Below are positions 56,254 through 57,138 of a stretch of 63,720 nucleotides of DNA, piece after piece. The notes under the pieces are model-generated. The model was not told the origin of the DNA, searched no databases, and saw nothing but the letters and a program-made list of their open reading frames with translations. How positions within the stretch are numbered: the first letter of the stretch is position 1; each line of letters begins with the position of its first letter. The translations under genes were made by a program, and so were the position numbers. The DNA comes from Candidatus Poseidoniales archaeon (GTDB taxonomy: Archaea; Thermoplasmatota; Poseidoniia; Poseidoniales; Thalassarchaeaceae): assembly GCA_003602515.1 (NCBI GenBank), contig QQSB01000002.1, forward strand, positions 6,296 to 70,015, written 5' to 3'.

Positions 56254-57138
56254 TCACTCTCCGTCCCAGATTCCTTCGGCTATCATGAACTCCATTACTC
56301 GCTCAGAGACGTTTGCTCGGTTGCCTCCTCGAACCCCTGTGGCGGAAACAGCGAAAACCTCGGCAGGGATGTCTTGGGCTTCCCTCACCTCGTAGCCGAC
56401 CTTGCGACCATAGGATACGGCCTCTATATCTGGCATTATCCAAGCCTCGACATCCTCGTCGGAATACCTGTGCTCGACCATACGCTTGCGGAGATGGGCT
56501 GGGTATGGGTCGGAGTCGGTGACAGGGGTGTCTCGGATCCCGACAATTACTCTCTTGCCCTTGTCTAGCTCTTGCTGGATTAGCCATTCATGCCCCACAT
56601 GAAGTGGTTGCCAGCGACCGGGTAGCAAAACCGCCTTCGGCTTCTCAAATAAGTGCGAGAGCTCCTCGACCATGTCATCCACCTTGTGACCCGGTGCGCC
56701 GCTTGAATCAAGAGTCATGTGTGCGCACTGTGGCTCATCGAATGGGTCAGAAATTCCCGTGAAGTTGGAGATCTCACCCAACCTTGCTTTGGCATATAGG
56801 CCCTTGACATCACGGTCCTCGCATACTTCTAGAGAAGTTGAAACATGCACCATGATCGAATTATGGGGCAGGATTTCGAGAATTCTTTCACGTACGTCCT
56901 CGTAGGGTGTGATGAATGAGCAGATCACGGGGGTATGCTTGGACATCAGTCTAGCCATCTTCGCGATGCCAAGAAGGTGCCTCTCCCTACCCTGTCTTGA
57001 GAAGTCGTTGTTTGAGAAGAAGTCTCTGATCGTGTCGCCATCGAGTAGTTCCGCTCCATACCTCTTTGCCGCTGCCTCTGCTATCGTAGTCTTACCGGCC
57101 CCAGAGAGTCCAATTAGCCAAACCACCTTGTTCCCCAT
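56254..57138 (-). CDS. cysC: adenylylsulfate (APS) kinase fused to a C-terminal HxGH nucleotidyltransferase domain
   Basis: Kinase half: [26 protein letters not shown] and [31 protein letters not shown]. C-terminal half: RWQPLHVGH and VSATGVRGG. An alternative upstream start at 57198 would overlap cysQ. Confidence 0.8.
   Translation of the reverse strand: [294 protein letters not shown]

Follow-up and report, generated by a model that had tools for sequence, protein, structure and literature searches.

What does a nucleotidyltransferase domain of about 130 residues do at the end of an adenosine 5'-phosphosulfate (APS) kinase? The question is raised by an open reading frame (ORF) in a 63,720-nucleotide stretch of contig QQSB01000002.1 from a Candidatus Poseidoniales archaeon (positions 6,296 to 70,015; this whole stretch is hereafter called the window). 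The ORF occupies 56254..57198 on the minus strand and encodes 314 aa, made up of an APS kinase, a linker and a minimal nucleotidyltransferase (NT) domain. A previous sequence-only reading of the window had offered two explanations for the small domain: a minimal ATP sulfurylase that hands its product to the kinase, or simply a nicotinamide mononucleotide adenylyltransferase (NMNAT)-like enzyme fused by chance. We find that the domain is neither an NMNAT nor a Sat-type ATP sulfurylase. With its relatives it makes up a large, so far uncharacterised family of minimal HIGH-signature nucleotidyltransferases, and this family is genomically dedicated to the pathway of 3'-phosphoadenosine 5'-phosphosulfate (PAPS) and to PAPS-dependent sulfation. 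As to its reaction, we lean, with considerable reservation, towards a minimal ATP sulfurylase that would feed the fused kinase, in effect a "mini PAPS synthase".

The two domains of the fusion protein

The N-terminal domain (56710..57129, minus strand; residues 24-163) is an APS kinase. It matches PF01583 with an E-value of 9.8e-38 and 130 bits against a Pfam cut-off of 21.1, and it carries the P-loop GLSGAGKTT (57085-57111, residues 30-38), LDGDTIR (57025-57045, residues 52-58), GRERH (56977-56991, residues 70-74), FITPY (residues 95-99) and NFTGIS (residues 145-150), all of course on the minus strand. The first two of these motifs are invariant among the orthologues of Marine Group IIb (MGIIb). 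Two NCBIfam models score it below their cut-offs (TIGR00455, 130.4 against 138.7; NF002059, 134 against 244). With Foldseek, the fold retrieves the solved APS kinases 2OFX, 5CB8 and 4BZP (E ~1e-15 to 1e-13), the best matches having target template-modelling (TM) scores of 0.73-0.85, a root-mean-square deviation of 1.6-2 A and 32-40% identity. In APS kinase structures the APS-binding residues are the Arg of LDGDxxR, the Phe of GFS, the Arg and Asn of DRxEN and the Phe of FTG. At these positions the window protein has R58, F66 (in DFS), R71 and F146 (in NFTG), and the Asn is replaced by His74 (in GRERH), a residue that is invariant throughout MGIIb. Among 31 NT-fused kinases, LDGDxxR...DRxEN is found in 19 and the same His replaces the Asn in seven; the change is also present in the viral kinase of one locus described below (L001).

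The kinase runs in frame, through a linker at 56641..56709 (minus strand; residues 164-186), into the NT domain at 56257..56640 (minus strand; residues 187-314). On this point the sequence-only reading, whose interval of 56254-56643 corresponds to residues ~186-314 plus the stop codon, was correct: the 314-aa translation contains every string that it had quoted, Pfam agrees, and all of the motifs can be located. The linker is the least conserved part of the protein. Over 72 full-length MGIIb orthologues its mean identity is 68.7%, that of the kinase 83.6% and that of the NT domain 86.4%, with all motifs invariant, and it follows that the small domain is constrained at least as much as the kinase.

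Four motifs, again on the minus strand, characterise the NT domain. In RWQPLHVGH (56590..56616, residues 195-203) the HxGH nucleotide-binding signature (HVGH, residues 200-203) comes after an invariant Arg195, and VSATGVR (56329..56349, residues 284-290) is a version of the ISxTxxR signature (S285, T287, R290). IRDT (56527..56538) lies at the end of predicted strand 2; its Arg222 is family-specific, the archaeal NMNAT having GSAQ here in the 1F9A alignment. Finally, YGRKVGY (56392..56412), with the family-defining G264-R265, stands in place of a segment that is deleted relative to NMNAT. The Pfam match to PF01467 (CTP_transf_like; E 5.4e-5, 23.9 bits against a cut-off of 21) is limited to residues 191-255 and to positions 1-65 of the 133 in the profile, that is, to its first half. 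The HxGH/ISxTxxR nucleotidyltransferase fold is genuine. The AlphaFold2 (AF2) model of the isolated domain has a predicted local distance difference test score (pLDDT) of 90.5, with three predicted beta-strands where five is the usual number, and its best Protein Data Bank (PDB) matches in Foldseek are NadM and archaeal NMNAT (TM 0.65-0.71, E 6e-5 to 1e-3). Matches to phosphopantetheine adenylyltransferase (PPAT) rank after these and cover only the first half of the domain; over the fold and profile searches they are weak (E 1e-5 to 1e-3). The full-length AF2 model has a pLDDT of 91.1 and a predicted TM score (pTM) of 0.79.

The mechanical ORF begins at a TTG codon and overlaps the upstream cysQ gene by 22 nt. 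Because of this overlap, and because the alignments with most MGIIb orthologues begin only at residue 15-21 and the full-length model falls below a pLDDT of 50 at residues 1-6 and 13-17, the true start is probably Met21 (ATG, 57136-57138), which would give a protein of 294 aa.

With respect to its origin, the small domain is clearly a descendant of the archaeal/NadM-type NMNATs, NMNAT being its evolutionary parent. The family profile aligns with the M. jannaschii enzyme (1F9A) at E 7.6e-18, in two blocks that pair family positions 11-81 with NMNAT 4-76 and 90-137 with NMNAT 110-155. The ~25 residues that directly follow the shared "DIE" strand in 1F9A are absent, and the near-invariant YGRxVGY is found in their place. 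In the Methanobacterium NMNAT, the segment DIEFNSIW... contacts the nicotinamide ring through an Asn and a Trp. Judged from its sequence, the small domain has kept the ATP-binding signatures, lost the NMN side and gained near-invariant arginines (R222 and R265), and YGRKVGY is a candidate anion (sulfate) site.

Could the domain still be an ordinary adenylyltransferase, acting on NMN (or on nicotinate mononucleotide, FMN or phosphopantetheine), that became joined to an APS kinase by chance? Archaeal NMNAT and NadM are, after all, its closest solved relatives in both sequence and fold, some fragments of the family are named "nicotinamide mononucleotide adenylyltransferase", and a NADAR gene adjoins the fusion in Xylella phage Bacata. 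However, the scores against the NMNAT families are far under the cut-offs (TIGR01527, 20.6 against 181.2; NF002243, 30.1-32.6 against 127), the C-terminal part falls far below every NMNAT or PPAT cut-off in NCBIfam, the post-"DIE" segment is replaced by YGRxVGY, and the association with APS kinase, documented below, is systematic and occurs in both orders. The chance fusion of an NMNAT-like enzyme thus seems to us very improbable.

A family dedicated to the PAPS pathway

Searched against 1.84 billion cluster representatives, a profile built on the NT domain has 4280 matches with E<=1e-3, of which 711 reach E<=1e-10 and 55 reach E<=1e-30, and a metagenome scan with six bacterial-type NT domains as queries gave at least 579 confirmed loci. 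A word-indexed search returned mostly fragments from Marine Group II, plus three distant relatives, of which one (P0052) is a second fusion protein and the others stand alone (107 and 123 aa). Standalone members of 110-160 aa are in fact common. The family signature, GR[WFY][QS]PxHxGH ... [IV]RDT ... NP[YF] ... PDI ... GRxVG[YW] ... ISATxIR, is contained within 110-130 aa, and the window protein has all of its motifs. Over 145 family representatives, and in the residue numbering of the window protein, R195, H203 and G264 are present in all 145, H200 in 144, R265, S285 and R290 in 143 each, G202 in 140, R222 in 138 and T287 in 136.

These column statistics bear on the possibility that the domain is a non-catalytic nucleotide-binding module, serving to sense ATP, APS or PAPS or to promote oligomerisation, perhaps like the APS-kinase-like allosteric domain of fungal ATP sulfurylase. 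The three predicted strands amount to a reduced Rossmann core, the pTM of the two-domain model may indicate a fixed interface, and the domain can co-exist with the canonical sulfurylase genes cysDN, as described below. Yet the catalytic signatures (H200, H203, S285, T287 and R290) are almost invariant across 145 divergent representatives, standalone proteins are common and, within MGIIb, the NT domain equals the kinase in conservation. We therefore consider a purely non-catalytic role unlikely.

No curated Pfam, NCBIfam or PHROG family is specific to these domains. In PHROGs the window domain has no match and the family matches only the generic phrog_10255 ("kinase"), and a structure search of viral models (BFVD) gave only generic "cytidyltransferase-like" proteins, the best being from Micromonas pusilla virus SP1 (E 1.3e-4). 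In their source databases, members are called "adenylylsulfate kinase", "cytidyltransferase-like protein" or "NMN adenylyltransferase" (on fragments, also the full name of the last). In the searchable literature we found no description of this family, of an APS kinase-cytidylyltransferase fusion or of a phage PAPS module. A term search of an archaeal fusion survey (PMC11237513) gave no passage on this fusion, and sulfate is not discussed in Tully 2019 or Rinke 2018.

The link with the PAPS pathway is evident from both gene fusions and gene neighbourhoods. PF01583 is carried by 64 of the 145 representatives, with the kinase either before or after the NT domain, just as two orders are known for fusions of Sat and APS kinase, and many of the NT-fused kinases are of the canonical type, with scores that reach 231 bits. 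Neighbourhoods, defined as the NT gene and two genes on each side, were counted for 26 viral and 30 long metagenome loci; APS kinase is either fused or within two genes in 21/26 and 21/30 of these, respectively. Sulfotransferases and glycosyltransferases lie alongside in the viral loci. The metagenome loci include 15 with DUF2061 (this domain is near the NT or kinase gene in 5/26 viral loci as well), and they yield five Sulfotransfer_3/_1 and six HAD matches. More generally, loci with the NT domain are rich in glycosyltransferases, methyltransferases and sugar-nucleotide enzymes. The two fusion orders and the neighbourhood counts tie the NT domain to APS kinase and sulfation, and the suspicion of a chance fusion can be set aside.

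Some individual loci illustrate the pattern, several of them with a sulfotransferase gene directly beside the NT or kinase gene. A phage locus (L203) has a kinase-NT fusion with a Sulfotransfer_2 gene, and a bacterial one (L204) has a methyltransferase, the kinase-NT fusion and Sulfotransfer_2. In L139 a family 2 glycosyltransferase (GT2) is followed by a sulfotransferase-like gene (identified by eye), NT and APS kinase; L171 has a sulfotransferase-like gene (also by eye), APS kinase, NT and then DUF2061; and L001 has a sulfotransferase-like gene (below the Pfam cut-off), NT and APS kinase. The sulfotransferase match in L004 is sub-threshold only. In a bacterial polysaccharide locus (L185) APS kinase and NT are accompanied by MetK and AhcY, which looks like a set of cofactor-supply modules.

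Among cultured phages, relatives are limited to the Sano/Salvo-type phages of Xylella, Xanthomonas and Stenotrophomonas plus DLP_6. In Xylella phage Bacata (LR743524.1, 29138-30901; L119) and Stenotrophomonas phage DLP_6 (L120) a protein of 243-246 aa, annotated as "kinase" or "adenylylsulfate kinase", combines a short, weakly APS-kinase-like P-loop half with the NT domain; in Bacata, the NADAR-domain gene and a weak Sulfotransfer_4-like gene precede the fusion. In three large marine contigs (L139 and L154, each ~192 kb, and L142) NT-APS kinase is found beside sugar-nucleotide dehydrogenases and epimerases. At the DNA level no deposited phage matches these contigs, and since it is a protein of Micromonas pusilla virus that the domain matches best in BFVD, L139, L154 and L142 may belong to algal (prasino-like) viruses.

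Other fusion partners also occur. P0075 (432 aa, from Logan contigs) joins the NT domain to a DHH/DHHA1 phosphoesterase (DHHA1 E 7e-5, just under the Pfam cut-off). The DHH/DHHA1 family includes pAp phosphatases, and this part of P0075 could act in the manner of NrnA, as a pAp phosphatase or nanoRNase, or else resemble a pyrophosphatase. Further partners are found in P0088, P0120, P0182, P0103 and P0134: N-terminal regions that by eye are Cys-rich repeat/HNH-like, a class I methyltransferase recognised by Pfam and, again by eye, a region resembling a glycosyltransferase.

DUF2061 also turns up with a canonical sulfurylase. In L205-L214, from "Thermoplasmata archaeon" (for example, L205 6001-8287), a 74-aa DUF2061 protein, apparently with two hydrophobic helices by eye, is encoded between cysD and cysN; after this cysN comes a 239-aa protein that is alkaline-phosphatase-like by eye. 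Since DUF2061 accompanies NT and APS kinase in many loci and is found between cysD and cysN in these, it seems to track sulfate activation, whichever the catalyst. We found no functional literature on DUF2061, which may be a membrane protein with a hitherto unnoticed part in activating or taking up sulfate.

Within MGIIb the fusion is conserved. A scan of one genome per species gave 80 loci, all from MGIIb (Thalassarchaeaceae/Poseidoniales). The same gene is present in these 80 species genomes at 76-97% identity (78-99% for the C-terminal domain), and the fusion is intact wherever the contig allows. In the window, the gene immediately upstream on the same strand is cysQ (57177..57977, minus strand), which encodes a 3'(2'),5'-bisphosphate nucleotidase, that is, a 3'-phosphoadenosine 5'-phosphate (PAP) phosphatase (TIGR01331, 238.9 bits against a cut-off of 228.8). 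In 63/80 MGIIb loci, cysQ and the fusion are no more than a few kb apart. A sulfotransferase gene adjoins the fusion in 34/80 species, where it lies between cysQ and the fusion and is transcribed divergently. The window has a homolog of this gene (48% identity) at 16691-17596, in a glycan-sulfation island (13675..17596) ~40 kb from the fusion. The island has Pfam matches to Sulfotransfer_1, _2 and _3 and to Glycos_transf_1: its three sulfotransferases (13675-14526, minus; 15872-16546, minus; 16691-17596, plus) are likely PAPS consumers, and with them is a family 4 glycosyltransferase (14584-15816, minus).

The other genes nearby can be dealt with briefly. Upstream of cysQ, a 191-aa ORF (57989..58564, minus) with no Pfam match is membrane-protein-like by eye and is next to cysQ in 58/80 MGIIb loci. 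Downstream of the fusion, a 99-aa ORF (55953-56252, minus) is recognisable in only 11/80 loci and may not be a conserved gene; further on are prefoldin alpha and an FtsY-like signal recognition particle receptor ORF (by eye). The sulfotransferase island adjoins a SelO protein adenylyltransferase gene (11687-13240, plus; E 2e-114), and just past it are genes for an APH-family phosphotransferase and a MOSC-domain protein (17568-18982, plus). A TauE/SafE anion exporter family protein is encoded 8 kb from the fusion (47368-48126, plus).

Which reaction?

Our favoured, though far from secure, interpretation is that this ~110-130-aa NMNAT-derived domain is an ATP sulfurylase of a third, minimal class whose recruitment was independent of both Sat and CysDN. 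With an APS kinase, adjacent or fused on either side, it would constitute a compact PAPS synthase. To our knowledge, Sat and CysDN are the only two known types of sulfate-activating enzyme. The small domain would convert ATP and sulfate to APS and inorganic pyrophosphate by an in-line attack on the alpha-phosphate; the attacking tetrahedral oxyanion would be sulfate, held in place by the new arginines. APS would then pass to the fused kinase, where phosphorylation of its 3'-OH would yield PAPS; this would be used by the sulfotransferases, whose genes adjoin the fusion in many relatives and lie 40 kb from it in the window, and the by-product PAP would be removed by the adjacent CysQ. Taken together with the third-class assignment, and just as tentatively, such a PAPS synthase would serve the sulfotransferases of MGIIb archaea, diverse bacteria and many viruses. 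What speaks for this interpretation is an acceptor side that is both reduced, by the ~25-residue deletion relative to 1F9A, and cationic, G264, R265 and R222 being conserved in 145, 143 and 138 of the 145 representatives. An ADP-sulfurylase reaction, a GTP- or CTP-dependent activation of sulfate and the synthesis of diadenosine tetraphosphate (Ap4A) were set aside on reasoning alone.

The distribution of the canonical enzymes cuts both ways. In all frames of the window there is no CysN G1, CysD SxGKDS, Sat QxRNPxHxxH or Sat GRDHAG motif, and the earlier statement that the window has no sat or cysDN holds at this motif level only. A motif scan of ~200 NT loci found CysD, CysN or Sat motifs in just one, so that the NT domain sits where a sulfurylase normally accompanies cysC. 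Nonetheless, the argument from absence fails for this clade, as cysD (TIGR02039) and cysN are reported in all the MGIIb metagenome-assembled genome (MAG) groups of Orellana et al. 2019 (PMC6864105, supplementary file 7); for these groups no cysH is reported, and for most of them cysQ is. Two CysD-seeded protein searches of our own listed Thermoplasmata and "Euryarchaeota" matches, with none named Poseidoniales.

The report of cysDN in MGIIb is the first of several points that weigh against a sulfurylase function, since a second sulfurylase would be redundant there, and yet the NT domain is strongly conserved. Moreover, in an Acidobacteriota contig (DATGWN010000087.1; L121 5117-8259) a divergent cysD-cysN pair lies directly beside the gene for an NT-kinase fusion (P0109), in a cluster that also holds an ABC (ATP-binding cassette) exporter and glycosyltransferase-sulfotransferase fusions. 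Together, these two cases imply that the NT family is no simple replacement for CysDN. Two details soften this counter-evidence: in P0109 the R265 of GRxVGY is a His, one of only two exceptions among the 145 representatives, and DUF2061 goes with NT and APS kinase in many loci as well as with cysD and cysN. Also unfavourable is that in 5-9 loci of each neighbourhood set APS kinase is neither fused nor within two genes, some having NT alone; one example is L122, where the genes beside NT are one for a dCMP deaminase and one that has no annotation. The Sano/Salvo-type phages, for their part, have a kinase half whose likeness to APS kinase is weak (32-38 bits), and the neighbor is the NADAR protein. 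Nor does Sat offer a precedent. In a profile-profile comparison (hhalign) of the family with residues 192-391 of Penicillium Sat (1I2D/1R6X), the probability was 12% and ISxTxxR alone was aligned, for which reason the idea of a miniaturised Sat was rejected. No Sat chain is among the best 60 of 79 PDB profile matches or the top 50 Foldseek matches. Pfam gives no PF01747 match for the window protein; six of the 145 relatives have weak ones (best 2.3e-5), none of the six being among the ten multi-domain members scanned. Finally, ATP sulfurylation is thermodynamically very unfavourable, and we know of no precedent for its catalysis by a 110-aa protein.

The co-occurrence with cysDN favours another possibility, that the domain is an active nucleotidyltransferase of the sulfation pathway with a reaction other than sulfate adenylylation, the APS coming from CysDN or the host. 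This alternative we take seriously, while finding it somewhat doubtful. The domain might activate another small anionic acceptor, it might make a PAPS-like donor, or it might nucleotidylate a substrate or product of sulfation. The simultaneous presence of CysD, CysN, APS kinase and NT, reported for MGIIb and seen in L121, makes sense if NT adds a distinct step, and the loci are full of glycosyltransferases, methyltransferases and sugar-nucleotide enzymes. In addition, kinases of the APS kinase type can act on other nucleotide conjugates: Cj1415, a Campylobacter homolog, phosphorylates CDP-amidate. On the other hand, many of the fused kinases read as canonical (DRxEN in 19/31, scores up to 231 bits), and the acceptor side of the NT domain is smaller than that of any solved relative matched, so that a bulky acceptor is less likely. 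We can name no specific reaction that would suit every context, and there are phage and bacterial clusters consisting only of NT-kinase and sulfotransferase, with no other sulfurylase within 10 kb.

Relation to known systems

The obvious comparison is with the Sat-APS kinase fusions (human PAPSS1, 1X6V; Aquifex aeolicus, 2GKS; Penicillium, 1I2D). In these too an APS kinase, homologous to the one here, is fused to a HIGH-signature alpha-phosphate nucleotidyltransferase with HxxH and ISxTxxR. Their Sat partner is, however, ~390 aa, with PUA-like and Sat catalytic domains, whereas the partner here is ~125 aa, derived from NMNAT and without QxRNPxHxxH or GRDHAG. The archaeal/NadM NMNATs (1F9A; M. 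thermoautotrophicum, 1EJ2; NadM, 2QJO) have in common with the small domain GRxQPxHxGH, the NPF/Y turn, ISxTxxR and the C-terminal "W..VP..V" helix. The small domain differs from them in its ~25-residue deletion, YGRxVGY, RDT in place of GSAQ and NCBIfam scores 6-9 times under the cut-offs, and also in genomic context, which here is the PAPS pathway and not NAD metabolism.

By analogy, CoA synthase (PPAT plus dephospho-CoA kinase) and NadR (NMNAT plus ribosylnicotinamide kinase) could be regarded as architectural parallels, each joining a HIGH-family nucleotidyltransferase to a P-loop kinase of the same pathway, although their substrates and kinase families are different. In CoA synthase, PPAT makes an adenylylated product and the kinase phosphorylates its 3'-OH, as APS kinase does. 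CysDN, the GTP-coupled ATP sulfurylase, would share its net reaction with the small domain, and DUF2061 and APS kinase are found with both. Nevertheless, CysDN has an unrelated PP-loop fold plus a GTPase, and its co-occurrence with NT in L121 and, according to the literature, in MGIIb means that the two are not simple alternatives. All in all, this is a HIGH-family nucleotidyltransferase in a PAPS-synthase-like architecture, with a substrate that is probably novel.

If the sulfurylase interpretation is true, a 110-aa domain would be the smallest known sulfate-activating catalyst and useful for PAPS regeneration in vitro. The scoring of sulfate activation as present or absent in genomes and viromes, where current pipelines apply the labels "adenylyl-sulfate kinase", "cytidyltransferase-like" or "NMNAT", would change, and many marine viruses would be carrying a self-sufficient sulfation module. 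If the domain is not a sulfurylase, then some other widespread and strongly conserved catalytic step accompanies APS kinase in sulfation, and this would be equally worth finding.

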